DNA of 64,000 nt, from positions 1 to 64,000 of IMG/VR virus record IMGVR_UViG_3300032893_000011; one strand, given 5' to 3'. Origin of the DNA: a virus. Below are positions 1 through 57,801 of this stretch, in pieces. Positions within the stretch are counted from its first letter, which is position 1. The number at the start of each line of letters is the position of its first letter. A model generated the notes under the pieces. The model was given only the letters and a program-made list of their open reading frames with translations. It was not told where the DNA came from and made no database searches. A program made the position numbers and the translations under genes.

Positions 1-155
1 GGCTCGCGGGAACGGCCGGGAAGCGGCTCATGCCGCCGTGGAGTTCGGACGACCTGTCGCGGGCGGTGGGTGTCGACCCGGAGCGCTTCGACCGGCACAC
101 CGCCCTGGGCGACGTGCGCTGGGTGATAGCGCAGTGGGACGCGGTGATGGGTTGA
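1..155 (+). CDS. 3' end of an upstream gene (partial)
   Basis: Open frame from position 3 to TGA 153-155, overlapping the ATG of the next gene (TGATG coupling). Confidence 0.5.
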   Translation, partial: LAGTAGKRLMPPWSSDDLSRAVGVDPERFDRHTALGDVRWVIAQWDAVMG

Positions 156-1081
156 TGCGGATCAACCGGACGTGGCGGCACCGCATCGACTCGTCGCGCC
201 ACGGTGCCCGCAGGTGGGTCGTCTACGCGGCGGTCGCGCTGGGCGCGCTCGCGGGGGCGCACCTGCTCTGGTCGTGGCTGTTCGCCGTCCCCGACACCGT
301 GGCCGCGCAAACCCGCTCGACCGTCAACCGGGCCGCGGTGGTGTCGTCGTTCGCGCAGGACTTCGTCACCGTGTGGCTGACCGCCACCGACCCCCACGTC
401 CTCGACGCGTTCGCCACCCCGCCCGACGCGATGGTCACACCCCCGACACCCGCGGTGGTGCTCGGCGCCCCCAACGTCGTCGCCGTCGAGCTGGTCGGCA
501 ACGCCGGCAAGAACGCAGCCGCCGAGCAGTGGTCCGTCGTTGTCGGCGTCACCCAACGCCCGTGGGAGTCGGCCCCGCCCACCCGGGCCCTGTACCGGGT
601 GTCGATCCTGTGGAGCAGGTTCGGGCCCCGCGCGACCGGCATGCCCGCCCGCGTCTCCGGGCCCGGCGCGGGCGCGGACCTGCCGGTGGCCTACCCGGTG
701 ACCCTCGGGCAGGGCGACCCGCTGTGGACGCTGGTGTCCGGCTGGGCCGCCGCCTACCTCACCGGCTCGACGCCGGTGAGCCTGTACATCACCACCGACT
801 CCCTGATCAGCGGCCTAGGCGGTGCCTACCAGTCGGCGACATTGACTGGGCTGCGCGCCGACACCAACCCCGCCGCCAAACCCGCCGAAGGGCAGCGGAT
901 ACGGGTCTACGCCCAGGTCGACGCGCTCACCGCGCAATACGCCCACACATACATGAGCTACCCCCTGACGCTGCGCGGGGTCGGCGGGGCGTGGAGAATC
1001 GCGGCCATCGACCGCGCCCCGGCGATGATCGCCGACGACGACCCCCAACCGGTAACGCAAGGAGACAACAACCATGGTTGA
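155..1081 (+). CDS. Conjugal transfer protein, TcpC/VirB8-like
   Basis: N-terminal TM helix, then two repeated domains (SSFAQDFVTVWLT; VSGWAAAYLTG...YPLTL..GGAWRIAAID); lies upstream of a VirB4-like ATPase; ATG at 155 coupled to upstream stop. Confidence 0.8.
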   Translation: MRINRTWRHRIDSSRHGARRWVVYAAVALGALAGAHLLWSWLFAVPDTVAAQTRSTVNRAAVVSSFAQDFVTVWLTATDPHVLDAFATPPDAMVTPPTPAVVLGAPNVVAVELVGNAGKNAAAEQWSVVVGVTQRPWESAPPTRALYRVSILWSRFGPRATGMPARVSGPGAGADLPVAYPVTLGQGDPLWTLVSGWAAAYLTGSTPVSLYITTDSLISGLGGAYQSATLTGLRADTNPAAKPAEGQRIRVYAQVDALTAQYAHTYMSYPLTLRGVGGAWRIAAIDRAPAMIADDDPQPVTQGDNNHG

Positions 1082-1346
1082 GACAACCCAGGCCGCGGCG
1101 GACCTGTTTTCGGCCATCCCGTCGATGTGGAGCGACGGGCGGGTCACCGCCGCGATCGTCGTCATCGCGATCGGCGCCATCATCGCGATCGCCAAGATCC
1201 ACCACGGCATCGGCAAGGCGATCGGCCTGTTCCTGGGGGCCGTCGTGCTGGGGGGTCTGGTGCTGGGATCGACCGGCGCCCTGGCGTCGATCAAACACAC
1301 CCTCGACAACCACGGCGGCATAACCTCCGGCGACTACGGCCGCTGA
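1074..1346 (+). CDS. Small two-TM conjugation membrane protein (pilin/TcpD-like)
   Basis: 90 aa, two hydrophobic helices, AAGGAG RBS, between TcpC-like and VirB4-like genes. Confidence 0.65.
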   Translation: MVETTQAAADLFSAIPSMWSDGRVTAAIVVIAIGAIIAIAKIHHGIGKAIGLFLGAVVLGGLVLGSTGALASIKHTLDNHGGITSGDYGR

Positions 1347-1349
1347 CCC

Positions 1350-4124
1350 GTGAACGACGAACGCGCGCGCGTCTACACCGACGTGCGCGACTTCCCCATC
1401 CACGTGTCCTACATGGACGAGCGGACCCGCATCTGGGGCGCCCCCTACCGCATCTGGGACGGCACCGCCGTGATCGTCGGCCTGTCGGCGACCGGGTGGG
1501 CGATGTGGCACTGGCTGGACTCCGGGCACCCCGTCATCATCGGCATCCTCGGCCTGACCCTCACCGCCGCGGCGAGGTGGCTGGCGAAGATGATGCCGAT
1601 CTCACGCCCGAGCCCCGCATGGCGGGCCCGCTGGCTGGCCACCGCCATCACGGCCCGCCCGCGGCGCGCCGACACGGCCGGCGGCGACCCGTGGCTGTCC
1701 CCACCCAAGGCGGTGATCGGCAACCTGGTGTTCACCCACGGCGGGGTGTACGCCGAATACCTTCTGGCCGGGCAGCCCGGCGGGATGATGCCCCACGAGC
1801 AGCGCCGCGCCGTAGCCGCGCGACACCGCCCCCTGGTGCGCCAACTGCCGTCCGGGTTCGTTCTGTGGGGGGTGTGCGCCCCGGTCGGGCGCCGCGAGCT
1901 GATCAACCGGATGCTGCGCGGCCACACCGACCAGCCGCGCTGGGTGTCGGAAGTCCGTGCATGGGAACCGGCCTTCGACCGTAAACAGTTCTGGGAGCCG
2001 GTGTTCGGTTTGCGGGTGCCCGTCGACGCCGGACAGGCCGGGCGCTCCAGCGTCGGCGGGCTGGCGAAGACGTGGAAAACCATCGTAGGGGCCGAGCCCG
2101 ACAACGCCGGAACCCTCGACGGGTACCGCCGCTTCGCCGACGAAATCCTCGCCAAGATCCCCGCCGAGTTCAACCCCGTCCCGGCCACGCCCCGCCAGAT
2201 CCGCTGGTGCTACCACCGCCACTGGACACGCGGCACCGACACCGAGCCGTTCCCGCACGGGCCCGGCGGCCCCGAGCGGTTCGACCCCGCCCACTTCCTC
2301 GACATGCCAGCCGTCTTCGACGAGGGCGACCAGGCCGGTCGCACCGGCCCGTGGTGGCGCCGGTGGCTGCCGTCGCTGGCGCCGGTGCTGCGCATCGACA
2401 CGGCGGGCGGTAATTCGTATCAGGCGCTGCTGGCGGTCGACCAGCTGCCCCGCCAGGGCCTCGCGCATCCCGGCGCCGAATACCTCATGTCCGTCTACGA
2501 CGTGCCGACCGACGCGCAGGTCGACTGGTACGCCCACGTCGACACCCGCTCGCGGGAGCGCGCCCTGGTCGGGGTGGACCGGGCGCAACGCAACCTCGAC
2601 GACCAGGCGTGGCAGACCAGCGGCCGCGGCGATTTGGCGCGCCGCTACGACTCGTCGGTCGACTACCGCCAAGCCCTGGAGGCCAGCAAGCTCGAACGCG
2701 AAACACAAACCACCACCGTCGTGGCGGTCGGCGCCTCCTCCCGCGCCTGGGTGCTGCGCGCGGCCGCCGCGCTGCGCACCCACATGGCCGAGGACATGGA
2801 GATCGTGCTGAGCGGACCGGCCGGCGCGCAGCGGGCCCTGTGGTGCCTGGGGGCCACAGGCGCCGCCGACCAGTCACCGCGCTCACAGTTCCGCCATCCC
2901 ACCACCACCACCGAATGGGCGCGGTTCGCGCCGCTCGCATCGGCCGAACTGGGCAACGACACCGGCATCCTGCTGGCCGCGAACCTGTCCACGGCCCGTC
3001 CTGGCCCGGTGTACGTCGACCTGGAGGGCTCCGCGGCGCGGCGCGACGCCCCCGGCATGCTGTGGTTCGGCCCGCCCGGCGGCGGCAAGTCGCAGGGCTG
3101 CAAACGCGTCGCCGACGCCCTGATCAAACGCGGCTCCCAGGTCACCGTCATCGACCCCGGCTCGAAACGCGAATGGGAGCACGCCCTGGCGCACCACGGC
3201 GACGCGGTGGCGGTGATCGACCCCACGGCGGGCCGCTGGTCGATCGACCCGCTGCGCCTGTTCCCGCGGGCGGTGGCGGTCGAACACACCCTCGACCACC
3301 TTTTGCCGCTGCTGGGCGTCGAACCCGACTCCGCAGCCGCCGGGCAGCTGAACCTGGCGCTGCGCGACGAATCCATACCGAGCCTCGCCGCGCTCACCAG
3401 AACGTTGCGCCCCGACGGCGAGCACCCCGAGCTGGCCGCCAAGCTGCGATCCTGGGCCGGCGTGGACTACCTGCGCGGCCTGTTCGACGACACCCTGCCC
3501 GTCCCGCCCATCGCGCAGCACGACGCCGTCATCTGGCTCACCCACTCCCTCGAACTGCCCACCATGAGCAACACCGACAACCTGCACCTGTACGGCCGCC
3601 AGTCCCGGCGGGCCCGCGCGGGTCTGGCCGTCTACGGCCTCATCGCGGCCCTGACCCGGCTCACCTACACCAGTGCGGGCCGCGACCGCTGGGGGTGGCT
3701 GATCTGCGAGGAGGCCCGCACCTACCTGGCGTCCCCGGCCGGGCGGGAGGAGGCCACCCGCACAATCACCCAGGGCCGCAAGGAGCACTACGGCCTGATC
3801 GTCATCTCCCAGCACATCGAGGACTTCGACGGCATCCCCACCCAGGACCTGCCGATGCGGATAATCACGCCGTTCAAACCCGCCGAGCGCGACTACGCCC
3901 GCGCGGTGTTCAAGCGGATGGGCATCGACCCCGACCAGTACCCCCAGGTCCTCGACACCCGCACCGCGGAGGGCCACGGCTACGCCTACTTCATCGACCA
4001 CCTGGGCCGCGCCGGGCTGGTGGACCTGCTGGCCCCGGTGCAACCCGAACTGGTCGGCGCGTTCGACACCCGCAACCTCGACCAAACAGTACAATGCCTA
4101 CATGATGGATCCGGAAGACGCTGA
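1350..4124 (+). CDS. VirB4-like conjugative ATPase with N-terminal membrane (TcpE/VirB3-like) segment
   Basis: Walker A GPPGGGKS, VIDP, Walker B LICEEA, QGRKEHYGLIVISQ motif, two N-terminal TM helices. Confidence 0.88.
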   Translation: MNDERARVYTDVRDFPIHVSYMDERTRIWGAPYRIWDGTAVIVGLSATGWAMWHWLDSGHPVIIGILGLTLTAAARWLAKMMPISRPSPAWRARWLATAITARPRRADTAGGDPWLSPPKAVIGNLVFTHGGVYAEYLLAGQPGGMMPHEQRRAVAARHRPLVRQLPSGFVLWGVCAPVGRRELINRMLRGHTDQPRWVSEVRAWEPAFDRKQFWEPVFGLRVPVDAGQAGRSSVGGLAKTWKTIVGAEPDNAGTLDGYRRFADEILAKIPAEFNPVPATPRQIRWCYHRHWTRGTDTEPFPHGPGGPERFDPAHFLDMPAVFDEGDQAGRTGPWWRRWLPSLAPVLRIDTAGGNSYQALLAVDQLPRQGLAHPGAEYLMSVYDVPTDAQVDWYAHVDTRSRERALVGVDRAQRNLDDQAWQTSGRGDLARRYDSSVDYRQALEASKLERETQTTTVVAVGASSRAWVLRAAAALRTHMAEDMEIVLSGPAGAQRALWCLGATGAADQSPRSQFRHPTTTTEWARFAPLASAELGNDTGILLAANLSTARPGPVYVDLEGSAARRDAPGMLWFGPPGGGKSQGCKRVADALIKRGSQVTVIDPGSKREWEHALAHHGDAVAVIDPTAGRWSIDPLRLFPRAVAVEHTLDHLLPLLGVEPDSAAAGQLNLALRDESIPSLAALTRTLRPDGEHPELAAKLRSWAGVDYLRGLFDDTLPVPPIAQHDAVIWLTHSLELPTMSNTDNLHLYGRQSRRARAGLAVYGLIAALTRLTYTSAGRDRWGWLICEEARTYLASPAGREEATRTITQGRKEHYGLIVISQHIEDFDGIPTQDLPMRIITPFKPAERDYARAVFKRMGIDPDQYPQVLDTRTAEGHGYAYFIDHLGRAGLVDLLAPVQPELVGAFDTRNLDQTVQCLHDGSGRR

Positions 4125-4205
4125 AAACGACTACTGCGTTCAAGGCAAGTTCGACGGGGTACTTGCCCACAAAGCGCAGATGGACGGACGCTTGTACGTG
4201 AGCAG

Positions 4206-4439
4206 ATGAGCGACATGAAGCTCTACCAGTGGCGCACGCCGCACGGCTGGCTAGCAACGGAGATCTACATCGGCGACGTCAGCATATGCGTGGCGCCGGA
4301 CGAGGACGGGCACTGGCATTGGCGCATCGGAGATGAAGGCGCCGACTGGCAGCCCATCGAAACGCTCGACGACCTGGCACGCTGCATCATCAAAGCACGC
4401 GGAATCGTCGCAATCCTGTCGTATCCAGGGTCCCAATGA
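4206..4439 (+). CDS. Hypothetical protein
   Basis: 77 aa ORF with normal composition in a slightly lower-GC patch. Confidence 0.5.
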   Translation: MSDMKLYQWRTPHGWLATEIYIGDVSICVAPDEDGHWHWRIGDEGADWQPIETLDDLARCIIKARGIVAILSYPGSQ

Positions 4440-4559
4440 CGGCCGCCGCAGACCACCCGAACCAGCCACCCAGGCGAAGCTGGGAGGAGCGCCACCAGTT
4501 CGGGTGGGACGCGCTGGCTGTCGCCATCGACTACTACTCGACGCTCATGGAGGAGTGGG

Positions 4560-4751
4560 ATGACTGACCACATCTGCCCCATCTATGACTGCCGCTGCCC
4601 AGCCGGAGACGCCGCCCGCATCGCATTCGCACGGGTCAACCTCATGATCGACGAGAAACACCCCGACGACCAATACTGGCAGGCCTGGGACCAGTTCGAG
4701 GCCGCCACCATGACACGCTTCGAGCAATGCCGATGCCCGACCCAGACCTGA
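4560..4751 (+). CDS. Small Cys-containing hypothetical protein
   Basis: GGAGGAG RBS; Cys clusters at both ends. Confidence 0.55.
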   Translation: MTDHICPIYDCRCPAGDAARIAFARVNLMIDEKHPDDQYWQAWDQFEAATMTRFEQCRCPTQT

Positions 4752-4975
4752 CCGCCGCCAAAAGGGTCCTAGCCGTACTCACCGGCCTGCCCTGCGACAA
4801 CACCTGGTGCAACCACCCCGTCGCCTACACCGTCAACTGGCACGGCTGCCACCACCAACTCCTATGCGGCCCCTGCTGGGACAAAACCGCCAAAGTCCTC
4901 GAACACTACGGCCAATGCCCCTGGTGCCACACCATCTACCTCCCCGAGCACCTGGTCAACGCCGAAAAGCTATGA
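4727..4975 (+). CDS. Small Zn-finger-like hypothetical protein
   Basis: CxxxxC, CxxC, CxxC; stop overlaps next ATG (ATGA). Confidence 0.55.
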   Translation: MPMPDPDLTAAKRVLAVLTGLPCDNTWCNHPVAYTVNWHGCHHQLLCGPCWDKTAKVLEHYGQCPWCHTIYLPEHLVNAEKL

Positions 4976-6996: not shown

Positions 6997-7173
6997 AGGG
7001 ATGATTCGATGAGTGAAGAAAGCCTGCTGAAAACACGGCTCACACAATCTGCCCTTGATTTCGAGGACGTAGGGACCGAGCCGCCCGACCACCGTTAACG
7101 ACACACCCCGCCGCAAACAGGGCCCGCCGCAACCACGGCGTTATCCTGAGAACGCCGAAGAAGCGAGACCCCC

Positions 7174-7653
7174 GTGTTCCTCACGCGCCTGCTGCGGGCA
7201 CGCCAACCCGACCCCGAACCGCCTGTGACGCCCAACTTCGACGCCCCGGGGCTCACCCACCACTGGCAGCTGGTCGAGCGCCACGAAATCAGCAGCGACC
7301 TGGCCGACGACCTGCCCGAGCACGAGAAGGCCGCCATCATCTCCGACGCCCGCCTAGCCGCCGCCGAGTGGGCCGCCCGCGAGGGTGTCGGCGTGACCCA
7401 CGTCGAAGCGTTCAAACGCCGCCTGCAGGTCGGCATCCGCTTCGAGCTGACCGTCGCCAAAGCGGTCGCCAACCCCGCCTGGGACGAGTTCGAGTGGGTG
7501 TGGTCGTCGCGATGGCGCGACTGGCAGCGCCGACTGGGCGCGCTGCGCCGCTACGAGAAGCACGGCCGCGCCCATCCCATCCGGGCCCTGCCCGGCGGTG
7601 CCATGGTGATACCGCTGCACCAACGCCACCAACACGAAAGCGACCCCACCTAG
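7174..7653 (+). CDS. Hypothetical protein
   Basis: 159 aa ORF with high-GC3 codon pattern. Confidence 0.55.
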   Translation: MFLTRLLRARQPDPEPPVTPNFDAPGLTHHWQLVERHEISSDLADDLPEHEKAAIISDARLAAAEWAAREGVGVTHVEAFKRRLQVGIRFELTVAKAVANPAWDEFEWVWSSRWRDWQRRLGALRRYEKHGRAHPIRALPGGAMVIPLHQRHQHESDPT

Positions 7654-7813
7654 TGGGCGCGGCACCGCAAATGGACCTAGAGGAGCTGGCCGCCCTTTTG
7701 GGGGAGCACGCGCTCGCCGTCTACTCCTGGGGGCCGGAAGGTTGCCGATGCCAAGAATGGGACGGCGACAGCGCTGATCACCCGCGGCACCAGGCGGAGA
7801 TGATTATCGCCAG

Positions 7814-8512
7814 GTGCGGCAACGGGTAGCTACCGCCGCCGCTAACATCGACCCCGTGATCGGGGTCGCGATATCCACCTGGCGCCGCCCGGACACCCTC
7901 GCGCTGGCCCTGAACGAGTGGGCGCGGCGCCTCGCCGGGGTGTCCCTGCTAGTCGTCAACCACGACGAGCAGGGCCGCGGCGTCGCCGAAACCAAAAACG
8001 CCGGGCTGGCCGCCCTCATGGCCGATCCCCGAATCACCGACCTGTTCTTGGCTGATGATGATGTGTCTCCCATCGCCGACGACTGGGCCCGCCCCTACGT
8101 CCAATCCCCCCACCCCCACCTGATGCACTGCTGGGGAGCCAACCGCTACGAACGCGAAATCGACGGCCACACCATCTGGTCGTGGCCCCGCGGGGTGCTC
8201 CTGTACGCCAGGAGGGCGGTCGTCGAGCGCGTCGGCGGCATGCGCCCCGACTTCGGCCCGGTGGGCGGAGAGCACGTCGAATGGTCGCGCCGCGTCCACA
8301 ACTGCGGGTTCACCCCCCACCCGTTCATGGACGTCGCCGGATCCAACCGGCTGTGGTGCTACGACACCACGGCACCGACCACCCTGCCGAAAACCCGCTA
8401 CACCGACCGCCGCTGGAAAACACGCCGCCAACGCCTCCTGGAGTCCTATCGGCACTCCACCGAACACGTCGCTTTGCCCCTGCCCGCCCATCAGTTAACG
8501 TCACCGCTGTGA
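7814..8512 (+). CDS. Glycosyltransferase, GT-A fold (GT2-like)
   Basis: IGVAISTWRR, GVAETKNAGL, LFLADDD, ERVGGMRPDF..GGEHVEWSRR; start uncertain. Confidence 0.8.
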   Translation: MRQRVATAAANIDPVIGVAISTWRRPDTLALALNEWARRLAGVSLLVVNHDEQGRGVAETKNAGLAALMADPRITDLFLADDDVSPIADDWARPYVQSPHPHLMHCWGANRYEREIDGHTIWSWPRGVLLYARRAVVERVGGMRPDFGPVGGEHVEWSRRVHNCGFTPHPFMDVAGSNRLWCYDTTAPTTLPKTRYTDRRWKTRRQRLLESYRHSTEHVALPLPAHQLTSPL

Positions 8513-9042
8513 AATGGTCGCCCGACGAGGGGCTGATCACCGCCGTCCGGACCGGCCGCTGCACGCAGCGCTACGCGACCATGACACCGGCGGACCGCTC
8601 CTGGGTCGTCGCCGGGCTCACCCGCGCCGGATACACCGCCGAACGGATGGCCGAACTGATGGGCTGCAGCCTGCGCACGGTGCGGGTGATCAAAGCTGAG
8701 CCGATGACACGCATGGCCGAGCTGCTGCAAACCGAGGCCGCCGCGTTCGAGGCCGAACTGTCCCTGGCCCGCTCCGAGCACGCCCGACTAAACTCCGAGC
8801 TGGCGTCGTGCACCCTGGCACAACGACGGATGCGCGCCAACCTGATCCGCGTCACCTCACCCCGGATCACCGAAGGCCATCCGCTGTGCGCGCGGGGCGT
8901 GCACCGCATGACCCCCTACAACACCTACGAGAACGGCGGCCGCCGGTGGTGCCGCGAATGCCACCGCATACGCGAGGCCGGGCGACGCGCCCGCAAACGA
9001 GCGGCCCGCACCGAAGCGCAGCCCAAGACGAGGATAAGTTGA
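8509..9042 (+). CDS. HTH DNA-binding protein with coiled coil and C-terminal Zn motif
   Basis: GYTAERMAELMGCSLRTVR HTH; CARGVH..NTY...RRWCREC. Confidence 0.7.
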   Translation: MKWSPDEGLITAVRTGRCTQRYATMTPADRSWVVAGLTRAGYTAERMAELMGCSLRTVRVIKAEPMTRMAELLQTEAAAFEAELSLARSEHARLNSELASCTLAQRRMRANLIRVTSPRITEGHPLCARGVHRMTPYNTYENGGRRWCRECHRIREAGRRARKRAARTEAQPKTRIS

Positions 9043-9046
9043 CCTG

Positions 9047-10624
9047 ATGGGATTCGGCATCATCGGCACCGCCCACCTGGGCGCGCCGCGGCGCGTGCAC
9101 GGCGACTACGACTACCTCGTCACCGGCGGCATGGGCTTCATCGGCCGCCACACCATCGCCGAGCTGCGCCGCCAACACCCGCAGGCCCGCATCGTCAGCC
9201 TCGACAACCTCGCCACCGCGCAGCAGGACCGCACCGACCCGTTAACAGAGTTCGTGGCCGGCGACGTCGCCGACACGTCACTGGTCAACCACCTCGTCAG
9301 CAGATGCAAAACCGCCGTCATCCACCTCGCCGCCGACTCGCGGGTGCTGCCGTCCCTGCACGACCCCGCCAAAGTCCTCGACACCGCCCGAACAAACATC
9401 ATCGGCACCGCCAACATCCTCGCGGCGATGACCAAAACCATCGACCCGCTCACCCTCGTCTACGCCGGGTCGTCCACCGCCTACGGCGACACCAGCGTCC
9501 CGCAAACCGAGACGGACCTGCCCAGCGTCAAAAGCCCCTACGCGGCGACGAAACTGGCCGGCGAGCTGCTCATCAGATCGTTCGCGGTGACATTCGGGCT
9601 CGACGCCGTGGTGCTGCGCTACTTCCAGGTGTACGGGCCCGGCCAACCCACCGAAGGCGCCTACGCCCTGGTCACCGGCGTGTTCATGCGCCAGTACGCC
9701 GCCGGGCAACCGTTAACGATAGAAGGCGACGGCACCCAGACCCGCGACTTCGTCCACGTCGCCGACGTGGCCCGCGCCAACGTCGCCGCCCTCGGGTTGC
9801 GCAGCAGCGGCGGGCTGCCCATCAACATCGGCTCCGGGCAGATGCACTCCGTCGCCGAACTGGCCGACCTGATCTCCCTCAACCAGGTCCACGTCCCCGC
9901 CCGCCGCATCGACCTGGCCGCCACCTGCGCCGACATCACCGCCGCTAAGAGCCTGCTCGGGTGGGAACCCGAAATCAAGTTCGCCGACGGGATACACGCG
10001 ATGCTGGCCACGCTGGGCGCCCAGCGGCGCGAGGAGACCAGCGGCCACGACATGCGCCCCGGCCCCTACCTGGCGCCCAAACCCGACCCGGCCGACCCGT
10101 GCCACCGCGGCCAGTGCTACAGCCTCCTACGCCACTGCATAGAGCTGTGCGAACCCGGCTACGGCCTGGAGTTTGGCGTGCAGACCGGGCACTCGCTGGA
10201 GCTGATCGCCCGCCGCCTGTACGGGGTCGGGTTCGACAGCTTCAACGGCCTCCCCGAGCCGTGGGGCCCCTACCCGAAAGGCATGTTCGCCCACCACCCG
10301 CCCGCGATCCCCAACACGCGGATCGTCGTGGGATGGTTCGCCGACACGCTGCCCACGTTCGACTTCACAACCGTGCAGCCGCTGCGCCTCATCCACATCG
10401 ACTGCGACCTGTACAGCTCCACGAAAACCGTGCTTGAGCACCTCGGCCCGCACCTGGCGCCCGGCACGATCCTGGTGTTCGACGAATACCTGTACGACTG
10501 GCCGCCCAACGAGGCCCGCGGCGGCGACGAGCAACGCGCCTGGCGCGACTTCACCCAAACCCACCCCGTGCGCTGGAAGGTGATCGGCCACGCCGCAGGG
10601 GCATGGGCCATACAGGTCGCCTAA
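9047..10624 (+). CDS. NAD-dependent sugar-nucleotide epimerase/dehydratase fused to TylF-like class I O-methyltransferase
   Basis: VTGGMGFIG, YAATK, RDFVHVADVA; C-terminal LEFGVQTG, GFDSFNGLPE, IHIDCDLYSS, VFDEY. Confidence 0.88.
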   Translation: MGFGIIGTAHLGAPRRVHGDYDYLVTGGMGFIGRHTIAELRRQHPQARIVSLDNLATAQQDRTDPLTEFVAGDVADTSLVNHLVSRCKTAVIHLAADSRVLPSLHDPAKVLDTARTNIIGTANILAAMTKTIDPLTLVYAGSSTAYGDTSVPQTETDLPSVKSPYAATKLAGELLIRSFAVTFGLDAVVLRYFQVYGPGQPTEGAYALVTGVFMRQYAAGQPLTIEGDGTQTRDFVHVADVARANVAALGLRSSGGLPINIGSGQMHSVAELADLISLNQVHVPARRIDLAATCADITAAKSLLGWEPEIKFADGIHAMLATLGAQRREETSGHDMRPGPYLAPKPDPADPCHRGQCYSLLRHCIELCEPGYGLEFGVQTGHSLELIARRLYGVGFDSFNGLPEPWGPYPKGMFAHHPPAIPNTRIVVGWFADTLPTFDFTTVQPLRLIHIDCDLYSSTKTVLEHLGPHLAPGTILVFDEYLYDWPPNEARGGDEQRAWRDFTQTHPVRWKVIGHAAGAWAIQVA

Positions 10625-10630
10625 GGGGGT

Positions 10631-11518
10631 ATGCCGATGGGCGGTAATACGGATCGGATAGACCCGGCGCTGCTGGGGCCCGACCTCGGGGCGCAGGTGT
10701 CCTGGCCGGTCACCGACGACCCGATCCCCGACTCTCCGATGGCCCGCTGCTTCAATGACACCTGGCAGATCCACAAGAACGACAACTACATACCGGTGTA
10801 CGAATCGATTTTCAGCCCCTACCGCGACAGGCCGATACGGATGCTGGAGATCGGGGTGAGCCGCGGCGGCTCGCTGCAGCTGTGGCGCCGCTACTTCCAC
10901 CCCGACTCGATAATCGTCGGCTTGGACATCAACCCGGGCTGCGCACGGTTCAACGACCACGAGCATGGCATCTGCGTGCGCATCGGCGACCAAGCCGACA
11001 TTGATCACCTCAACGAGCTCATCGACGAATTCGGCCGCTTCGACATCGTCCTCGACGACGGATCGCACCTACCCACCCCCACCCTCACATCGTTTCAGCA
11101 CCTGTTCGCCCACGGCCTCGCCGACGGAGGCGTGTACCTCGTCGAGGACCTGTGGTTCTGCTACATGCCCGTCGGGCAAGACGAGCACTGCCCCACCTTC
11201 GTCGACGTGGTCAAATACCTGATCGACGTCATGCACCAGGAGTGGGTCGGCCACAACACCCTCGACGCGTTCAGCCTTGAGGGGGCCCGGCTGCTCGCCG
11301 AGCATCCCGGCAGCGCCGACCAGATCGCCTACGGCACCGTCGACCCGCTGCAGGCCACCGTGTGCCGCGTCCCCAACCCGTACCGCATCCGTGAGCACCG
11401 GGTGCCGCTGGCCGCCACCCTCATCGCTGGCATCGAGGTGTACGACGGCATCGTGGCCATCCACCGCCAGCCCCGACACCCGCCCAACGTGCTGCTGAAC
11501 GTGACAGGAGAATTCTGA
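10631..11518 (+). CDS. Class I SAM-dependent (sugar O-) methyltransferase
   Basis: MLEIGVSRGGSLQLW, IGDQAD, FDIVLDDGSH, GGVYLVEDL. Confidence 0.85.
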   Translation: MPMGGNTDRIDPALLGPDLGAQVSWPVTDDPIPDSPMARCFNDTWQIHKNDNYIPVYESIFSPYRDRPIRMLEIGVSRGGSLQLWRRYFHPDSIIVGLDINPGCARFNDHEHGICVRIGDQADIDHLNELIDEFGRFDIVLDDGSHLPTPTLTSFQHLFAHGLADGGVYLVEDLWFCYMPVGQDEHCPTFVDVVKYLIDVMHQEWVGHNTLDAFSLEGARLLAEHPGSADQIAYGTVDPLQATVCRVPNPYRIREHRVPLAATLIAGIEVYDGIVAIHRQPRHPPNVLLNVTGEF

Positions 11519-12723: not shown

Positions 12724-12727
12724 CCGC

Positions 12728-12823
12728 TCACTTGGTCTTGCGGCCAGTCTTCTTCGGGGTGAACGGCGGCGCCTTCCGGTCCCCGAAGTTCGCCAGCTTG
12801 CCCTTGCTCTTCTTCTTGGCCAT
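12728..12823 (-). CDS. 31-aa Lys-rich basic peptide
   Basis: MAKKKSKGKLANFGDRKAPPFTPKKTGRKTK; TAGGCT -10 box 7 nt upstream of ATG. Confidence 0.6.
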   Translation of the reverse strand: MAKKKSKGKLANFGDRKAPPFTPKKTGRKTK

Positions 12824-12837
12824 GCGGGCGAGCCTAG

Positions 12838-13575
12838 TCAGCGGCTCGGCGCCGCGCCCCGATCAGCGCCGGTGAGCAGCCGGATCTGCCCGGCGGTGCG
12901 CGCCCCCAGGTAGGCCCGCAGCCGCGCCCGGTTACGGTCGGTGGCGGCACGCTCCTCCGCGCTCACATGCGCCGCGCCCCCGGCGAACCGCCCAGCCGGC
13001 CAGCCCGGGGTGTGAAACAAGTGGTACGCCGGGCCCTCCACGTAGCGGGTCAACCGCCGGGTGCACACCGCGAACGCCCGCACCATCGCCCTGTCGTCGT
13101 AACCCCAGCCGGCCATCTGTTCGTCCCACCGACCGACGGCGCGCATCGTCTGCGCAGACACCACATTGACAGCCCCGACGGCGCTGCCCCCGTACATGGT
13201 GCGCAGAGGCTTGATAGTCGCAGGGTCCACACCGGCCCGCACCGCCGCACTGCCCTCCGGGCTCAGGTAGTGGTACGAGGTCATCGGCACCACCAGCCCC
13301 GGCGCGGCGGTCGCCATGTCCACCGCCAGCCGCAGCGAGGACGGCGGGACGAGCATGTCGGCCTCGACGAAACAGAAGCAGCCCACCCTCCCCGCCTCGG
13401 CGACACCGCGGTTGTAGGCCGCCGAGCGGCAGAACGGGCCGCCACTGCGGCCGTCGTCGGCGACGATCACCGGCCAGCCGGTCACCTCAAGCCGCTGCCT
13501 GACGACGACCAGGTTCGCGGCCCGGTCGGGGTCGCCGCGGTCCCGATAGGGCACGACCACCGCCACCGACGTCAC
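12838..13575 (-). CDS. Glycosyltransferase GT2/GT7C-like
   Basis: VVVPYR, FCRSAAYNRG, EADML, GRWDEQMAGWGYDD, YHLFH. Confidence 0.82.
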   Translation of the reverse strand: MTSVAVVVPYRDRGDPDRAANLVVVRQRLEVTGWPVIVADDGRSGGPFCRSAAYNRGVAEAGRVGCFCFVEADMLVPPSSLRLAVDMATAAPGLVVPMTSYHYLSPEGSAAVRAGVDPATIKPLRTMYGGSAVGAVNVVSAQTMRAVGRWDEQMAGWGYDDRAMVRAFAVCTRRLTRYVEGPAYHLFHTPGWPAGRFAGGAAHVSAEERAATDRNRARLRAYLGARTAGQIRLLTGADRGAAPSR

Positions 13576-18217: not shown

Positions 18218-18537
18218 GGTCCTTCTCCTCCCTCTGGCGATTCGCCTGGCGTCCTCGCCCAACTCGCCCCGCCGCGCCGCTTTCACAATCGCGCGGGCCG
18301 CTGCTGGGCTGGTCTTAATGAGGGCGCGTGCCTCGGCTATCAGCCGGCGAAGCTCAACCTCAGTGCTACTGATTGGCGTACGGGTGGTGGTCATAATTGC
18401 TCCTCCGTTGTGGTAGTGGCCAGGGGAGATTCGAACTCCGCATCATCGCCCTACCCGGGTAGCCTTGGTCGGGGAGCCGATGCTTTTCATGGTGCCCTCC
18501 TGGGCCGGTGGTTCGGCGTGGGTTCCCACCTACCCCC

Positions 18538-18578: not shown

Positions 18579-18584
18579 ACCGCC

Positions 18585-19349
18585 ATGGCGAGAACCGCCC
18601 CCAAACCCCCGAGCGGCCTGATCGACACGACCACCACCATCGCCCCCGACCAGCTGAACTACTACCACCGAAACGCCCGCCGCGGCGACGTCAACGCGAT
18701 CATGCGGTCCCTGCTGAAACATGCCCAGTACAAGCCGCTCACCGGCAACATCGGCACTTACACCGGACGGCCCAACGAGATCCTGGCCGGGAACCACACG
18801 CTGCGCGCGATCCGCCAGCTGGCCGCCGACGACCCGGCCGACCCGCGGTGGCAGTCAGTGAAGGTCCATTGGGGCGACTGGGACGACGACACCTGCCGCA
18901 CCATCAACCTCGCCGACAACCGCACCGCCGAACTCGGCGGCTACGACACCGCCGAGCTGGTCGCGCTGCTCAACGGCGTCGACGACACGGACCTGTCGAG
19001 CATCGGCTACACCGTCGAGGACGTATCAGATTTGCGGGCGTCTCTAGAGGAGCAGGACACGCCGATCGTCGATCAACGCCCACCGCGCCTCGGCGAAGAT
19101 GGGCTGATCGACAGCAACGACATCACCGAAAACAAGGAAGGCTACGCTGACGCGGCGAGCCGGCTGGTGGTGTTGGTGTATCCGATCCCGCAGTTCGTTT
19201 GGGCGCAGGAGCAGTTTGGGAAGTTCCGGGCGGACCGCGGGATAGACACCAACACGGAAGCTGTGTTGGCGCTCCTCGCGGATTACACCGGCGTGGCCCC
19301 GCCGGAGGCGGAGGGGTTCGAGCCCGCGGGGGTGGCTGTTGAGGGTTGA
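18585..19349 (+). CDS. ParB/Srx N-terminal domain protein (modification-cluster associated)
   Basis: RNARRGDV, ILAGNHTLRA, LADNRTAELGGYD. Confidence 0.85.
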   Translation: MARTAPKPPSGLIDTTTTIAPDQLNYYHRNARRGDVNAIMRSLLKHAQYKPLTGNIGTYTGRPNEILAGNHTLRAIRQLAADDPADPRWQSVKVHWGDWDDDTCRTINLADNRTAELGGYDTAELVALLNGVDDTDLSSIGYTVEDVSDLRASLEEQDTPIVDQRPPRLGEDGLIDSNDITENKEGYADAASRLVVLVYPIPQFVWAQEQFGKFRADRGIDTNTEAVLALLADYTGVAPPEAEGFEPAGVAVEG

Positions 19350-20319
19350 CGCGGCGCGCCTGCTGACCCGCGAGCAAGCCACCGAGCTTGTCGGGCTGAA
19401 ACCGGCTGTTATGACACCGAACGTGGACGCGCCTGCGTTTGTGCACGACGCCGACACCGGCGAGCTGATCCTGGCGTATCTGCCGCTGGAGGATCCGGGG
19501 CCGCTGCGGCGGGCGATGCTGACGGTGGACTGCTCGTCGGGTGTGCAACGCAACCGCAACTACCGGTCGCAGTCGCGCACATTCGGATACGCGCCGCGTC
19601 GGCCGGTGTTGCGCCGCGAAGGCTGCAGCCACACGTCGATCTGCATTGAGCAGCCCGACGTTGAACAAGTCCTGGAGAACTACGCAGACCAGCTGGGCCG
19701 GACCTTCAACAGTTTCGCGCCCGAGGTGGTCGAGGCTAACCGCGTCACCTTGGGTGACGTGCTGCCGCAGTGGCGGCTGGGGAAGGAGAAGCTGTGGACG
19801 TCGGGGGTGATCAACAACACCGCCGCCCTGCCCTATCATCGGGACGGTTACAACTTCCCCACCTGGTCGGCGATGTCCGTCATCCGCAGGGGCGTCCGCG
19901 GCGGTCACCTGCACGTCCCCGAATATGGTGTGGTGCTGCCGTGCTCTGACGCGACCGTCGTGTTCTTTGAAGGTTTCAGGCACGTTCACGGCGTCACCCC
20001 GATCGTGCGCGTGAAGAAGGGCGAAGGGTATCGGATCAGCGTCGTGTATTACGCCCTGCGGGGCATGAAGAACTGCCGCGAAGCCGCCGAAGAGACAGTG
20101 TTGGCCCGCCAACGACGTACCGAACGCGAGGTCGAGATGGCTAAACGGCTGGCCGCCGGCGAAACTGGCATCCCTCAATCAATAGGCGGCCGCATAGACC
20201 CTCGCAAGTTGGATAGACGTGTCTCCTCCGTTAATTGGCGGTTCAATTCCGAGTCGCCGCCGCCGAAGGCCCGGGCAGCCAAGCCGAAAGACGACGATGA
20301 GGGGTCTCGTGCTGATTGA
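19339..20319 (+). CDS. 2OG-Fe(II) dioxygenase, TET/JBP family
   Basis: WTSGVINN, YHRDGYN (HxD), HGVTPI, RISVVYY. Confidence 0.82.
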   Translation: MRVDAARLLTREQATELVGLKPAVMTPNVDAPAFVHDADTGELILAYLPLEDPGPLRRAMLTVDCSSGVQRNRNYRSQSRTFGYAPRRPVLRREGCSHTSICIEQPDVEQVLENYADQLGRTFNSFAPEVVEANRVTLGDVLPQWRLGKEKLWTSGVINNTAALPYHRDGYNFPTWSAMSVIRRGVRGGHLHVPEYGVVLPCSDATVVFFEGFRHVHGVTPIVRVKKGEGYRISVVYYALRGMKNCREAAEETVLARQRRTEREVEMAKRLAAGETGIPQSIGGRIDPRKLDRRVSSVNWRFNSESPPPKARAAKPKDDDEGSRAD

Positions 20320-21187
20320 CCAGCGGCGGCTGGCTGATTTGACGGAGTTCGCCCGCGTCGAAGCCGAAAGCCGCGACGTGGAGCCGTGGGCTGACATCAT
20401 CGCCGCCGTCGAGCTGCCTCGCGAGCAGCGCACCTGGCTGATGACCTTGTACAACACGTTCGACGACCTGCATTCGGCGTGGTCGTGTATGCGACGCTGG
20501 CCCACCCCCGCCCGGTGGGGCGCGGCGCCCGACCGCCACGAGGCGGCGCGATTCAACTGCACGCAGGAGCGCCGCAACCTGCGCGGCGGCCGGGTCCTGC
20601 AACGCTTCGCCTCCTACGCGGCAATCCTCACCGGCCGCACCGAGGAGCAGTGGATGACCGTCGGGCTGGGAGCCGACCCGGGCCGCAACTTCACGCGCCT
20701 CACCACGCGGATGCGCACCGTGTGGGGGGTGGGCCGCCAATCAGCTTTCGAGTGGGCCGAATTCGCCGGCAAAGTCCTCGGCCTACCAGCCGACGCCGCT
20801 GACGGCCAACTATGGGAGTCGTCAGGGCCCCGGCGTTGTTTGGAGCGGATCTTTCACCTCGATCAGCCGAGCCCCGCGCAGCTGCACGAGGCGGCCAACG
20901 TGTGCCGCGAATGGCTGCGGCAGGAGGGGGTGCCGCTGGCGTGGGTCGACTTCGAAACCGTGATCTGCGACTACAACGTGGCCCGTGACGGGCGTTACTA
21001 CCCGGGCCGGCACCTCGCCGCCCTGCGGGAGGAGATCAACACGCTACCCGACGCCGCCGACAGGGCCCTACTCGGCGCGGCGTGGGACTCTTTCGTGCCT
21101 GAGCCGTGGCGCTCCATCCGGCCCGGCATCGACCCCGCGAAGATGAATGTTTATCGCGACTCGGGGAAGATTATTCAATGGCCGTAG
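20297..21187 (+). CDS. Amino acid:DNA transferase-like (aGPT-Pplase2 clade)
   Basis: ERRNLR, GVGRQSAFEWAE, SGPRRCL, FETVICDY..GRYYPG; start may be GTG 20309. Confidence 0.72.
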   Translation: MRGLVLIDQRRLADLTEFARVEAESRDVEPWADIIAAVELPREQRTWLMTLYNTFDDLHSAWSCMRRWPTPARWGAAPDRHEAARFNCTQERRNLRGGRVLQRFASYAAILTGRTEEQWMTVGLGADPGRNFTRLTTRMRTVWGVGRQSAFEWAEFAGKVLGLPADAADGQLWESSGPRRCLERIFHLDQPSPAQLHEAANVCREWLRQEGVPLAWVDFETVICDYNVARDGRYYPGRHLAALREEINTLPDAADRALLGAAWDSFVPEPWRSIRPGIDPAKMNVYRDSGKIIQWP

Positions 21188-22257
21188 AAGACCCCGCCGC
21201 GACAGCCCGGTTCCTGGGCGCCTACTGCAAACAGTTCAACGCTGGGGCGTTCGCCCACCCGACCGGCAAAGAACTCGCCGCCCACCCCGAGTGGATAACA
21301 GACGAGCAAATCGGCGACGAACGCGCTGTGGTCATCAGCCGCGTCTTAAGTCGCGACTCGGTGCGCACCGACTTCACCGGCAGGAAATTCGCGATCCCCG
21401 CCAGCCAGCGAATCGCCACCCTAGTCGCGCACACACCCAACCTGCTGCCGCAGCTGAACCGCTACGCCTACATCATGACCTACGCCGAGGACCGCCAGCT
21501 GAACGCCCTATGCGCCACCCTCGGCAGGCGCATCGTGGGCACTCGGATCACCGCAGCCGCCGAAATCATCCACTGCTGGGGGCCGCCCACCGACCAAGCC
21601 CACTACGCAGCCTGGGACCGTGCCACCGTCACCGAAGTCGGCCACACCGACCCAGCGACCGTCTTTGGGTTCGTCACCGAAGCCGCCGCCGCCACCGGAT
21701 GGGACGACGACTACCCCTACTACAGCGACGGCGGCTGGAGCGCGGTATGCCTCAAAGGGTTCTGGCCTGACGACCCCAGCCGCGGTGTCAAACCCTCCGA
21801 GATGCCCAAACCGTGGAAAGCCGAGCACCGCAGCGATTTGACTCGCACCGCCCAATGGACAACCCTGGCCCGCCGAACCCCGTCGTTGACGGCGTTCGTG
21901 GAGTCGGTGCCGTGGTGGCGGCGCACCGAGCGGGTTCGGCTGCTGAAGATGAAAGCGGGATCGCGGCTCGCGCGTCACAGCGACATCACCGACCGCGACA
22001 GCGGCACCCGCGACGGCCAGATTGTCCGGTTCCACATCCCGCTTCTCACCCACCCGGACTGCCTGCTGCACACCTGGGACCTCGACGGGCTCCGCCGCGA
22101 CCACCACCTACAGGCGGGCCGCTGGTACTACCTCGACGCCCGCAAACCCCACGCCGTCACCAACCGCGGGCCCGTCGACCGCATCCACCTCGTCGTGGAC
22201 GTGCTCTGCGACGTCGACGTGCGCCGCCACATCGCGCAGGCCCGCCAATGCGTCTGA
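21178..22257 (+). CDS. Asp/Asn beta-hydroxylase-like 2OG oxygenase with extra N-terminal domain
   Basis: RVRLLKM..GSRLARHSD, RFHIPLLT, KPHAVTN, RIHLVVD. Confidence 0.78.
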   Translation: MAVEDPAATARFLGAYCKQFNAGAFAHPTGKELAAHPEWITDEQIGDERAVVISRVLSRDSVRTDFTGRKFAIPASQRIATLVAHTPNLLPQLNRYAYIMTYAEDRQLNALCATLGRRIVGTRITAAAEIIHCWGPPTDQAHYAAWDRATVTEVGHTDPATVFGFVTEAAAATGWDDDYPYYSDGGWSAVCLKGFWPDDPSRGVKPSEMPKPWKAEHRSDLTRTAQWTTLARRTPSLTAFVESVPWWRRTERVRLLKMKAGSRLARHSDITDRDSGTRDGQIVRFHIPLLTHPDCLLHTWDLDGLRRDHHLQAGRWYYLDARKPHAVTNRGPVDRIHLVVDVLCDVDVRRHIAQARQCV

Positions 22258-22793
22258 TATACCTCGCCGGTGGGCCCGGCTCAGGCAAATCCACCCTGAT
22301 GGCGGCCCTGACCAGCCGATACGATCGGATGCCGTGCTACCGCGACAAACCTCCGCATGATGTGCTCGTCGACCGGGGCACCGGCGCGGCGGTGGGCGCG
22401 GAGATAGGGCGCCGCCGCGCCAGCTTCGGCGGCACCGACGCCCTAGCCTCCACAATCATCAACACCGCCGTCCCATGGGTGGAGTCGAAGCCCTACCCGC
22501 TGATCCTGGCTGAGGGCGCCCGCCTGGCGTGTCAACGATTCCTGCTCGCCGCCACCGCCACCTACGATGTGACGTTGGCGCTGCTCGACCACCCCCAAGC
22601 CGAAGGGTGGCGCGTCGCGCGCTCCCAAGCCAACAACCGGTTCCAAAACGAGGCCTGGGTGCGGGGCCGAATCAGCGCCAGCCGCAACCTCGCCGACAAG
22701 CTCGACGGCCGCGAGCGGATCACGGTCCTGCGCGGACACCCCGACGACCTGCAACCAATCCTGGCTGGACTACTCGCCGATGAGCACCACTGA
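22248..22793 (+). CDS. P-loop nucleotide kinase of base-modification clusters
   Basis: GGPGSGKST, FGGTDAL, AEGARL. Confidence 0.8.
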   Translation: MRLIYLAGGPGSGKSTLMAALTSRYDRMPCYRDKPPHDVLVDRGTGAAVGAEIGRRRASFGGTDALASTIINTAVPWVESKPYPLILAEGARLACQRFLLAATATYDVTLALLDHPQAEGWRVARSQANNRFQNEAWVRGRISASRNLADKLDGRERITVLRGHPDDLQPILAGLLADEHH

Positions 22794-24465
22794 GAAGCAG
22801 CACGCCGTCACCAACCTGACAGCAGCGTGGCCGCCCGAGTCGCGCAACGCGATGCTCGAATACCTGTCCGCGGGCGCGAAACGCAAGATCCTGGCGGGGA
22901 CGTACCGCGACGCCGCGAACCTCGCCCAGGTCATCGACCCCCGCTACGTCGTCACACCGGCGCTGCAACTCATCGCCACGCACATCGAGACGGTGCTGCG
23001 CCGCCCCCGCCACAACCTGCTCATCAACATGCACCCCCAGTCGGGCAAGACTCAGCTGTGCGCCGTCTACGCGCCGCTGCGGGCCCTCATGCTCAACGCC
23101 AACTGCCGCATCATCCTCACCTGCTACGCGGCGTCGCTGGCCGAGGAGTCGTCCCGGCGCTGCCGCGAACTGATCGAGCAGCACGGCACCGGCGTCATCG
23201 ACCCCGTCACGGGCGTCGCCGCCGCCGACAAGCTCGGCTACCGCCTGGCCTCGGGATCCAACCGGGTGAACGCCTGGAAGATCGCGGGCGCCCGCGGCGG
23301 CATGGTCGCCGTCGGGTGGGGCGCCAGCCTCACAGGCAAGCCCGCCGACCTGTTGATCATCGACGACGTGGTCAAGAACCAGATGGAGGCTGACTCCGCC
23401 AACCACCGCCGCAAGATCTCCGAATGGTTCTCCACGGTGGCGCTGACCCGACTATCACCCGACGCATCCATAATCCACATCAGCACCCGCTGGCACCCCG
23501 AGGACCTGGCCGGGCAGATCATCTCCGGGGAGGCCCTGCAGGACGACCGGTTCAAGACGTGGAAACACATCAACATCCCCGCCATCGCCGAACGTGGCAT
23601 CCCCGACGCGCTCGGCCGCCAGCCTGGGGAGGCGATGGAATCCGCGCGCGGCTTCACCAAAGAATCCTTCGAGGCCATCCGCCGCGAGGTCGGGGAGAGG
23701 ACGTGGTACAGCATGTTCCAGGGGGTCCCCAGAAACCCGGCCGGCGGCCTGTTCCTGCGGGCGTGGTTCGAGCCCCGCGCGGTCATAGCCCCCGCCGACC
23801 CGGTGGCCGTCATCGTCGGGGTCGACCCCGCAGACACGGGCCGCGACGACGAGACCGGCATCATCGCCGCCGCCCTCGACCAGGACGGGCGCATAATCCT
23901 CACCGAGGACTGGTCGGGGAAGTTCACCAGCGACCAGTGGGGGCGGCGCGCCGTCACCCTGGCGTTAACGGTCGGGGCCCGCGAGATCTCGTTCGAGGCC
24001 TACAGCATCGCCACCACCTACAAGCAGGTCCTCGAACACGCCTACCGTGCCATCCACGCCGACGCCGCCGCCAAGCACCGCAGCGGCGCCGACCTCACCG
24101 ACATCGAGCGCAAGGCGCTGGGCGAGTTGCCGCCGTTCACGATCCACAAGTGGCGCGGCCCGGCCCGCGTCGACGCGGTCGGGCGCAGCGCCGTCCTGCG
24201 TCAGGCGTTCGAGACACGGCGCGCCCGCACCGTCGAACACAAGCTGGCCGTGTTCGAGGACCAGGCCGCCGACTGGTTCGCCGGGCAGCACTGCCCAGAC
24301 AGGGTCGCCGCCGCGGTCATCGCCCACGACCGGCTCGACAAACTGTCCGGAGGGGCCCGGATGACGATAGCCACCCCGATCAACACCCGCCCCGACCCCG
24401 TGTCGAGATTCAAGACGCCCGCCGCGGTGCAGACGCATCTGGCCCGCCGACTTGGACGCCGGTAA
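22780..24465 (+). CDS. Terminase large subunit
   Basis: MHPQSGKT, LLIIDDVVK, TRWHPEDLAG, VGVDPA, CPDRVAA. Confidence 0.93.
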   Translation: MSTTEKQHAVTNLTAAWPPESRNAMLEYLSAGAKRKILAGTYRDAANLAQVIDPRYVVTPALQLIATHIETVLRRPRHNLLINMHPQSGKTQLCAVYAPLRALMLNANCRIILTCYAASLAEESSRRCRELIEQHGTGVIDPVTGVAAADKLGYRLASGSNRVNAWKIAGARGGMVAVGWGASLTGKPADLLIIDDVVKNQMEADSANHRRKISEWFSTVALTRLSPDASIIHISTRWHPEDLAGQIISGEALQDDRFKTWKHINIPAIAERGIPDALGRQPGEAMESARGFTKESFEAIRREVGERTWYSMFQGVPRNPAGGLFLRAWFEPRAVIAPADPVAVIVGVDPADTGRDDETGIIAAALDQDGRIILTEDWSGKFTSDQWGRRAVTLALTVGAREISFEAYSIATTYKQVLEHAYRAIHADAAAKHRSGADLTDIERKALGELPPFTIHKWRGPARVDAVGRSAVLRQAFETRRARTVEHKLAVFEDQAADWFAGQHCPDRVAAAVIAHDRLDKLSGGARMTIATPINTRPDPVSRFKTPAAVQTHLARRLGRR

Positions 24466-57800: not shown

Positions 57801-57801
57801 C

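Follow-up and report, generated by a model that had tools for sequence, protein, structure and literature searches.

The stretch of DNA analysed here (the window) comprises positions 1 to 64,000 of a single IMG/VR virus record of 113,740 bp, IMGVR_UViG_3300032893_000011, and all the coordinates given below are those of this contig (G000:C1). In this molecule a complete set of tailed-phage virion genes is physically fused with a conjugative transfer core made of type IV secretion system (T4SS), ESX (type VII secretion) and relaxase genes, as found in mycobacterial plasmids of the pRAW type. We think it probable, with moderate confidence, that the record represents one real replicon of at least 126 kb, carried by a wetland member of the Mycobacteriaceae, in which a phage became fused into the transfer core by general recombination. 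Phages and conjugative plasmids are usually seen as separate routes of gene flow. To our knowledge, the pRAW type is the only well-characterised class of conjugative plasmids in mycobacteria.

A virion gene set within a plasmid transfer core

Genes were called by their third-position GC bias and annotated with Pfam, PHROGs and NCBIfam; the GC content varies between 64 and 74% along the whole stretch. The left end of the contig carries a block of four genes (TcpC-like, a 90-aa membrane protein, VirB4-like and a polytopic, VirB6-like membrane protein; Table 1) that is kept in 9 metagenome loci and in 16 loci of Mycobacterium and Mycolicibacterium genomes. The relatives retrieved by the metagenome scan were at 54-58% identity only. 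Along the M. dioxanotrophicus plasmid NZ_CP020810 one finds, in this order, the ESX core, VirD4, two genes, TcpC, the 90-aa protein, VirB4, the polytopic protein and, about 4 kb further on, a minus-strand relaxase; the ESX accessory genes are located upstream of eccB. With pRAW-type plasmids (pRAW itself is from M. marinum; Ummels et al., 2014, PMC4173767) the contig shares this four-gene block, a MOBF relaxase encoded on the other strand, and the ESX accessory genes plus eccB in the same order and orientation. It differs from them in that its VirB6-like gene is separated from the relaxase by about 80 kb of Bclasvirinae-like phage DNA, that prophage-type genes are found after eccB and before the TcpC-like gene, and that VirD4, EccC, EccD, EccE, MycP, EccA and ParA are absent from the contig. 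The VirB6-like gene and the relaxase are thereby 84 kb apart, against 3-8 kb in the M. dioxanotrophicus plasmid, in the closest relative (the IMG/VR record G001, 195,582 bp) and in 4 of the 25 fetched loci (those named for this spacing, where the flank reaches, are L010, L012, L016, L038 and L048; elsewhere the flank ends before any relaxase).

A sequence-only reading of positions 155-24465 had described TcpC-, VirB4- and VirB6-like genes followed within about 1 kb by the genes of a 'cluster-B-like' phage with a complete virion set, and the longer record agrees with it. Phage-type genes run from 7174 on, 178 bp past the stop of the VirB6-like gene. The virion set is complete when compared with those of Thonko and LilMcDreamy and spans 22.2-75.5 kb, mostly outside the part read at first, and the best matches of the capsid are Bclasvirinae (61-63% identity). 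Both Thonko and LilMcDreamy are working phages. Lysis and RecET genes that look intact accompany the virion set. Every large phage or transfer gene that we examined is a long open frame in which the third-position GC bias is strong.

Table 1. Coordinates of the features discussed, in contig positions (GC3, third-position GC; ORF, open reading frame).
Feature	Position	Strand	Remarks
Cut upstream gene, last 50 codons, DnaQ-like exonuclease-like	3..152	+	GC3 0.90; phrog_192 'DNA polymerase exonuclease subunit', E 6e-4
TcpC/VirB8-like protein, N-terminal membrane helix and two NTF2-like domains	155..1081	+	
90-aa protein, two predicted membrane helices	1074..1346	+	Present in every relative
VirB4/TcpF-like conjugation ATPase	1350..4124	+	Pfam AAA_10 1.8e-16; weak NCBIfam TcpF match
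VirB4-VirB6 spacer (0.7 kb), two small ORFs	4206..4751	+	ORFs 4206-4439 and 4560-4751
VirB6/TcpH-like polytopic membrane protein (tentative), 729 aa	4807..6996	+	Pro/Ala-rich tail; four CGTTAACG sites
Left plasmid-phage joint, 177-bp intergenic	6997..7173		CGTTAACG at 7093
First phage-type gene, Thonko gp74 homologue	7174..7653	+	phrog_1031 4e-11; tblastn to Thonko 7.5e-11
Sugar-modification genes: glycosyltransferases, epimerase-methyltransferase fusion, methyltransferase	7814..13575		
Putative DNA-modification operon: ParB-N-like, TET/JBP-like, amino acid:DNA transferase, Asp/Arg-hydroxylase-like	18585..22257	+	Pfam ADDT 6.6e-13 (transferase)
Small terminase	22251..22781	+	
Large terminase	22780..24465	+	
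Portal, MuF-like protein, major capsid protein	33057..42178	+	
Major tail protein, glycosyltransferases, Ala/Thr-rich repeat protein, adaptor, chaperones, tape measure	44722..64000	+	
Ala/Thr-rich repeat protein, 1467 aa	51787..56190	+	Repeats of ~20 residues (AALLANAAQTVTAT-like); missed by GC-based gene calling
Tape measure, 2178 aa	58931..65467	+	Runs beyond window end
Minor tail proteins, lysin A, lysin B	to 78303		Beyond window
RecT	81170..82240	-	In minus-strand early block, 78.6-84.2 kb
PD-(D/E)XK exonuclease	82757..83674	-	In same early block as RecT
Thonko gp43 and gp73 homologues	84.6-87.0 kb		gp73 homologue 86404..87030
83-aa ribbon-helix-helix (RHH) protein	88113..88364		RHH_1, E 0.0013
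MOBF relaxase-helicase, 1761 aa	91317..96602	-	TrwC 3.8e-83; AAA_30 5.6e-53; NCBIfam MobF 231 bits (cut-off 100)
Backbone, DUF932 and ProQ-like genes, ESX accessory cassette	96824..111390		
eccB	111535..113121		Pfam 1.5e-132
59-aa ORF and truncated GQL-repeat gene, non-ESX	113122..113740		Directly after eccB stop

The joint is real and its origin does not appear site-specific

The left joint is not an assembly artefact. Logan contigs, produced by another assembler from two wetland-metagenome runs, cover positions 1-13207 with no difference and 1-8077 with one, and the depth is even on both sides of the joint (about 25x and about 15x in the two runs). The possibility of a chimera at about 7 kb, which the sequence-only reading had named as a check on itself, was thus not borne out. 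In a third run (X3) both parts are represented by short, identical pieces of low depth, a weak co-occurrence that does not bridge the joint. Exact-sequence look-ups also placed identical VirB4, TerL, portal and three other phage proteins on a 126,132-bp contig of different source (Logan and ENA are the sources listed), with a capsid protein that differs at two residues. Three phage proteins recur as near-identical variants on a 109,033-bp ENA contig.

The record is classed as linear with an estimated completeness of 100% (CheckV). The circularity check found no terminal repeat in the contig, and both its ends are open, the right one breaking inside a tandem repeat and the left one inside the DnaQ-like gene. 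That the two ends might belong to one gene was considered and rejected: the C-terminus of gp38 of prophiGD102-1, a relative of the GQL-repeat gene at the right end, does not resemble the 50 residues that the left end encodes. The ends are therefore not halves of a single gene and the record is incomplete. The Logan contigs of the two runs extend 8.9 and 12.9 kb past the contig start, and about 12 kb or more of the element lies beyond the assembled ends.

The absence of an integrase or attachment (att) repeat, first noted for the junction alone, extends to the whole 113.7 kb, in which we found no tyrosine or serine recombinase, integrase or resolvase and no att-like repeat. The only words that the two joints share, 10-11-mers with the motif CGTTAACG in them, were rejected as att candidates because the motif has 15 sites. 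A tRNA-Thr(CGT) called by ARAGORN at 14559-14644 (86 nt) was likewise discarded as an integration target; Rfam finds no tRNA there at gathering score, the call is probably false, and its 15-nt match at 87678 is at chance level. Without recombinase, repeats or a confirmed tRNA, the fusion does not look like a site-specific integration.

A plausible scenario is that the genome of a Bclasvirinae-like siphovirus recombined into a pRAW-type core between the VirB6-like and the MOBF relaxase genes. The homologues of Thonko gp73 and gp74, adjacent genes in Thonko, flank the plasmid-derived DNA here, and the phage would have been opened between them. One general, rather than site-specific, crossover between two circles would fit both order and orientation. 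Later remodelling would have cut the ESX locus right after eccB and left the plasmid blocks bordered by prophage-type DNA on both outer sides; further events would be required for this cut, for the outer prophage-type DNA and for the DUF932 block. As the contig is without integrase, the element would be maintained as a plasmid. It could probably still build phage particles and, regarding conjugation, would at best be mobilisable with a helper element, unless the remaining 12 kb or so hold the missing genes.

A motif dispersed over the element

The motif CGTTAACG had been noticed in both halves of the first-read part, and its distribution is striking. The window contains 13 copies (0.39 expected; 0 of 100 shuffles reach 13) and the contig 15, all within 5415-88092: the VirB6-like gene has four, the left joint has one, and the remainder are spread across the phage part. 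TcpC, VirB4, the relaxase and the ESX cassette are free of the motif. It is also absent from G001, Thonko, LilMcDreamy and two related prophages (described below), with at most one copy in the other relatives, and so appears to be specific to this element. Within genes, the frames as we read them indicate that the motif forces the rare codons GTT or TTA, which would suggest selection at the level of DNA. A double site at 88084-88099 abuts a TATAAT box, and the ATG of the RHH gene follows 7 nt later. From this position, the RHH protein may be an autoregulated regulator that binds the dispersed sites, with operators across the phage part and in the VirB6-like gene. The element-wide presence of CGTTAACG suggests a shared history or a shared control, and its occurrence in the VirB6-like gene indicates that the fusion is not very recent.

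Comparison with relatives and with other hybrid elements

The VirB4 and EccB of G001, the closest relative, are 69% identical to those of the contig, and its relaxase has a segment with 65.6% identity. In G001 the genes from TcpC to EccB are found in one 35-kb block with a VirB6-relaxase gap of 3.3 kb, and this block continues with EccCa, part of EccCb, PPE, EspG, EccD, MycP and EccE; VirD4 is present too. The queries that are positive in G001 match only TcpC, the accessory genes and EccB in our contig. The tblastx comparison of both records had to be filtered, the raw version being swamped by high-GC noise, and in the filtered version there was no homology in the VirB4-VirB6 spacer, in the VirB6-relaxase spacer or upstream of TcpC. 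No homologue of the present capsid or terminase was found in G001. G001 is catalogued as a virus of 100% completeness; it has a near-complete pRAW-type transfer core (loci L022-L032). Either it is a plasmid that was misclassified, or it is a hybrid involving a different phage.

Further hybrids of this kind were sought in the 16 genome loci and 9 metagenome loci, in G001 and in the plasmid regions that we examined, and none was detected. Homologues of this phage were found in none (0/25) of the loci within 10 kb downstream of the T4SS block, nor in the examined plasmid regions or G001. Five genomes contain a homologue of the capsid, and never on the same contig as VirB4 or TrwC. Single-protein scans of IMG/VR gave no match with the VirB4 query and two short fragments only with the capsid query.

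Regarding the phage part, the gene order from terminase to lysin, with 40-70% protein identity, and the lack of integrase are as in the Bclasvirinae (cluster B-type) phages Thonko and LilMcDreamy, and the DNA-modification operon corresponds to gp1-gp4 of LilMcDreamy. The differences are concentrated elsewhere. RecT and a PD-(D/E)XK exonuclease take the place of their exonuclease, about 10 kb of additional glycosyltransferase and repeat-protein genes are located in the tail module, and the whole is embedded in plasmid DNA. The DNA polymerase I, primase-polymerase, helicase and exonuclease of both phages have no homologue in the 113.7-kb contig: tblastn with the LilMcDreamy proteins gave no match, and none of the contig's genes maps to the region 41-55 kb of Thonko. 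At 126 kb or more, the element is about 1.8 times as large as the 69-72 kb genomes of the phages related by capsid and terminase.

Integrated prophages with a syntenic structural module and a tyrosine integrase nearby exist in two Mycobacteriaceae genomes, at about 2.97-3.02 Mb of G113:C1 and at about 160-211 kb of G194:C9 (loci L051-L062). Their capsids are 55-57% identical over the full length (best segments 52% in G113 and 64% in G194). The phage lineage is thus not strictly lytic.

Phage-plasmids (P1, N15, SSU5, cluster A actinophages; Pfeifer et al., 2021, PMC7969092; Pfeifer and Rocha, 2024, PMC10879196) are similar in carrying a tailed-phage gene set without integrase on a molecule with plasmid genes. 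Unlike this contig, in which no replication or partition gene was recognised, they are defined by such genes. Relaxases are rare in them, mob or oriT being lacking in all except two P1-like ones (PMC10879196), and no phage-plasmid was found among 72 mycobacterial plasmids (PMC7969092). The nearest functional precedent is pZL12/phiZL12 of Streptomyces, also actinobacterial, for which a plasmid/lytic-phage cycle and conjugal transfer have been reported (Zhong et al., 2010, J Bacteriol 192:3747; cited in PMC7157519, PMC3583192). Its transfer reportedly depends on a Streptomyces tra gene and adjacent genes (PMC3583192), not on relaxase, T4SS or ESX, and the phage is unrelated. Tandems of phages with integrative-conjugative elements (ICEs; Sci Adv 2026, PMC13651849) also join a phage to a conjugative element with potential co-movement. 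These, however, are separable site-specific accretions with phage integrases, whereas here no integrase or att was found and the phage is inside the transfer gene core.

Weighing of the readings

Several points weigh against a single replicon formed by general recombination. The independent contigs tested the left joint only, all runs that contain the element are wetland metagenomes from 2019, and the source sample itself may be behind two of the three. An integrase, Rep/Par genes, VirD4 or phage replication genes could be located in the unassembled part. A single crossover leaves the phage-type DNA at the outer ends and the DUF932 gene unexplained, so that at least two events must be assumed. 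What connects the RHH protein to the motif is their position, and intact reading frames are not a proof of function.

One alternative is a fully self-sufficient conjugative phage-plasmid that replicates as a plasmid, is transferred by its own T4SS and type VII secretion system (T7SS) and packages its whole genome into infectious virions. Intact-looking relaxase, TcpC, VirB4 and VirB6-like genes on the same molecule as a complete virion and lysis set, without integrase, are what such an element would have; microdiverse copies in several assemblies suggest that it is maintained, CGTTAACG is found throughout it, and there is additional DNA of about 12 kb or more beyond the assembled part. Yet VirD4, EccC, EccD, EccE, MycP and EccA are not present in the 113.7 kb, and EccC is essential for the transfer of pRAW (PMC4173767). 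If the element were a circle of 126 kb, some 12.4 kb would be left, by our estimate too little for the absent genes (16 kb or so) together with the rest of the two genes that are cut. Packaging of the whole genome is also questionable, given its size of 1.8 times that of the nearest capsid and terminase relatives. We therefore regard this alternative as doubtful. The proposal of the sequence-only reading that one element may spread both by conjugation and as a virion stands in its first half, a single real molecule; its own conjugation (no VirD4 or EccC), the packaging of at least 126 kb by a phage with relatives of 69-72 kb and dual self-transfer are unproven and, in our opinion, doubtful. 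A broader version, in which a lineage of tailed phages in environmental mycobacteria has merged permanently with pRAW-type plasmids and moves both as virions and by relaxase/T4SS/ESX mating, with both gene sets of the present element governed by one RHH regulator at dispersed CGTTAACG operators, seems unlikely.

Equally unlikely, we think, is a dead-end cointegrate or trapped prophage that makes no infectious particles or has a decaying plasmid part, and is inherited vertically or mobilised by helpers only. The phage replication module is not in the contig, the ESX locus is truncated right after eccB, no coupling protein is present in the contig and the size exceeds that of the phage relatives; the lack of homologues of this phage in the other 25 T4SS-block loci, G001 and the examined plasmid regions would also fit. 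On the other hand, the large phage and transfer genes keep their long open frames and strong third-position GC bias, selfish inserts and accessory genes have been retained, and the spread of CGTTAACG into the VirB6-like gene speaks against an accident of very recent date.

An ordinary prophage, integrated site-specifically in a conjugative plasmid or ICE, with its integrase and att in the unassembled part or unrecognised, is very unlikely. The integrated relatives with their nearby tyrosine integrase, the 59-aa ORF after eccB (Xis/AlpA-like by eye) and the open contig ends speak for it. However, there is no integrase near the phage boundaries at 7.1 kb or 87-91 kb, nor anywhere in the 113.7 kb, no flanking repeats were found, the tRNA call at 14559 is unconfirmed by Rfam, and the phage is broken between two neighbouring early genes and not at an attP beside an integrase. 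Finally, an assembly chimera of a phage and a plasmid from the same sample, to which a metagenomic source, high-GC repeats and a contig end in a tandem repeat could point, is hardly credible in view of the same joint recovered by a second assembler from two runs (0 and 1 differences, even depth), the identical pieces of both parts at similar low depth in a third run, the separate contig of 126,132 bp with both gene sets, and the order and orientation of relatives kept by the plasmid blocks on either side of the phage.

The replicon that we favour, a phage recombined into a plasmid core, would be a test case for three questions: whether both routes can be used by one element, how phages and plasmids exchange replication and transfer modules, and how ESX and T4SS genes travel between them. 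Plasmids of the pRAW type transfer between slow-growing mycobacteria, and hybrids with phages would therefore widen the known movement of DNA in this group. Even if defective, the element records recombination between a phage and a plasmid and its later remodelling.

Genes of the plasmid parts

The TcpC-like protein shares 50-63% of its residues with the 'conjugal transfer protein' of pRAW-like plasmids and has no match in Pfam or NCBIfam. We have modelled it with AlphaFold from 17 homologues, and the best PDB match of this low-confidence model (pLDDT, the predicted local distance difference test, 57.5) is TcpC of pCW3 (3UB1, E 2.4e-6), followed by the VirB8-like OrfG of ICESt3. The 90-aa protein occupies the place of VirB3 or TcpD/E in other systems, and the VirB4-like protein is 57-69% identical to mycobacterial plasmid ATPases. 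The small genes between virB4 and virB6 had been taken as phage-like, a description that was not confirmed: neither ORF matches any phage family (PHROG). The spacer shows no homology to the similar one of G001; in the other relatives VirB6 abuts VirB4.

The polytopic protein that follows, for which the start is probably at 4972, is 37-58% identical to its relatives and has homologues in all pRAW-like loci. In a fold search with its model, TrwI/VirB6 of R388 takes the first four places (E 0.018-0.055, target TM score 0.38-0.54), from which we tentatively consider it VirB6-like. A VirB6 homologue was not identifiable in pRAW according to Ummels et al. (PMC4173767). Upstream of the block, the stop of the DnaQ-like gene overlaps the ATG of the TcpC-like gene; the DnaQ-like gene has no counterpart upstream of TcpC in G001 or in the plasmids compared.

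For the rest of the contig, the sequence-only reading had pointed to relaxase, VirD4, ESX, Rep and ParA genes as worth looking for, and the outcome is divided: the relaxase, the ESX accessory genes and eccB are there, and VirD4, the ESX core, ParA and a recognisable Rep are not. A tblastn search with the plasmid VirD4, which found that of G001, gave no coupling protein in the 113.7 kb. EccCa, EccCb, EccD, MycP, EccE, EccA and EspG had no tblastn match in the contig, and all of them except EccA were matched in G001. No homologue of the plasmid ParA/MinD is present in the contig and no Rep was recognised among the scanned genes, many small ones of which are without family. The relaxase is followed by two backbone genes and then by a block of about 3.8 kb with the DUF932 and ProQ-like genes, the DUF932 protein being 56% identical to LilMcDreamy gp90. 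The ESX accessory cassette consists of PPE, DUF4226, lysozyme-like and NlpC/P60 genes and ends in eccB. Of the two non-ESX genes beyond it, the 59-aa ORF has one weak match to a PHROG of unknown function as its only family match and is, by eye, an Xis/AlpA-like candidate, and the GQL-repeat gene is homologous to gp38 of the M. abscessus prophage prophiGD102-1. Near the relaxase there are also two copies (80% identical) of a 64-nt element with TATAAT, at 97975-98038 and 98731-98794, that precede a 125-aa gene and the DUF932 gene; they look like paired promoters in a leading-region-like position.

Genes of the phage part

The sugar-modification region has short DNA matches to cluster O phages and Myrna, and the minus-strand block after it encodes a PE-PPE-domain protein (17213-18394, minus strand). 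The four-gene operon located just upstream of the terminases is syntenic with gp1-gp4 of LilMcDreamy, with 47-70% identity, and is predicted to be a DNA hypermodification system. Its ParB-like gene is probably not a partition gene, since the operon is common to the lytic phage LilMcDreamy. Within 33057-39962, the portal has 916 aa and the MuF-like protein 1383 aa, which is 290-570 residues more than their Thonko counterparts have. The Ala/Thr-rich repeat protein of the tail module sits beside several glycosyltransferases and may be a glycosylated protein of the virion surface. A second protein with a PE-PPE domain (serine hydrolase-type), at 72120-74447 on the plus strand, is fused to an endolysin/lysin B-like part.

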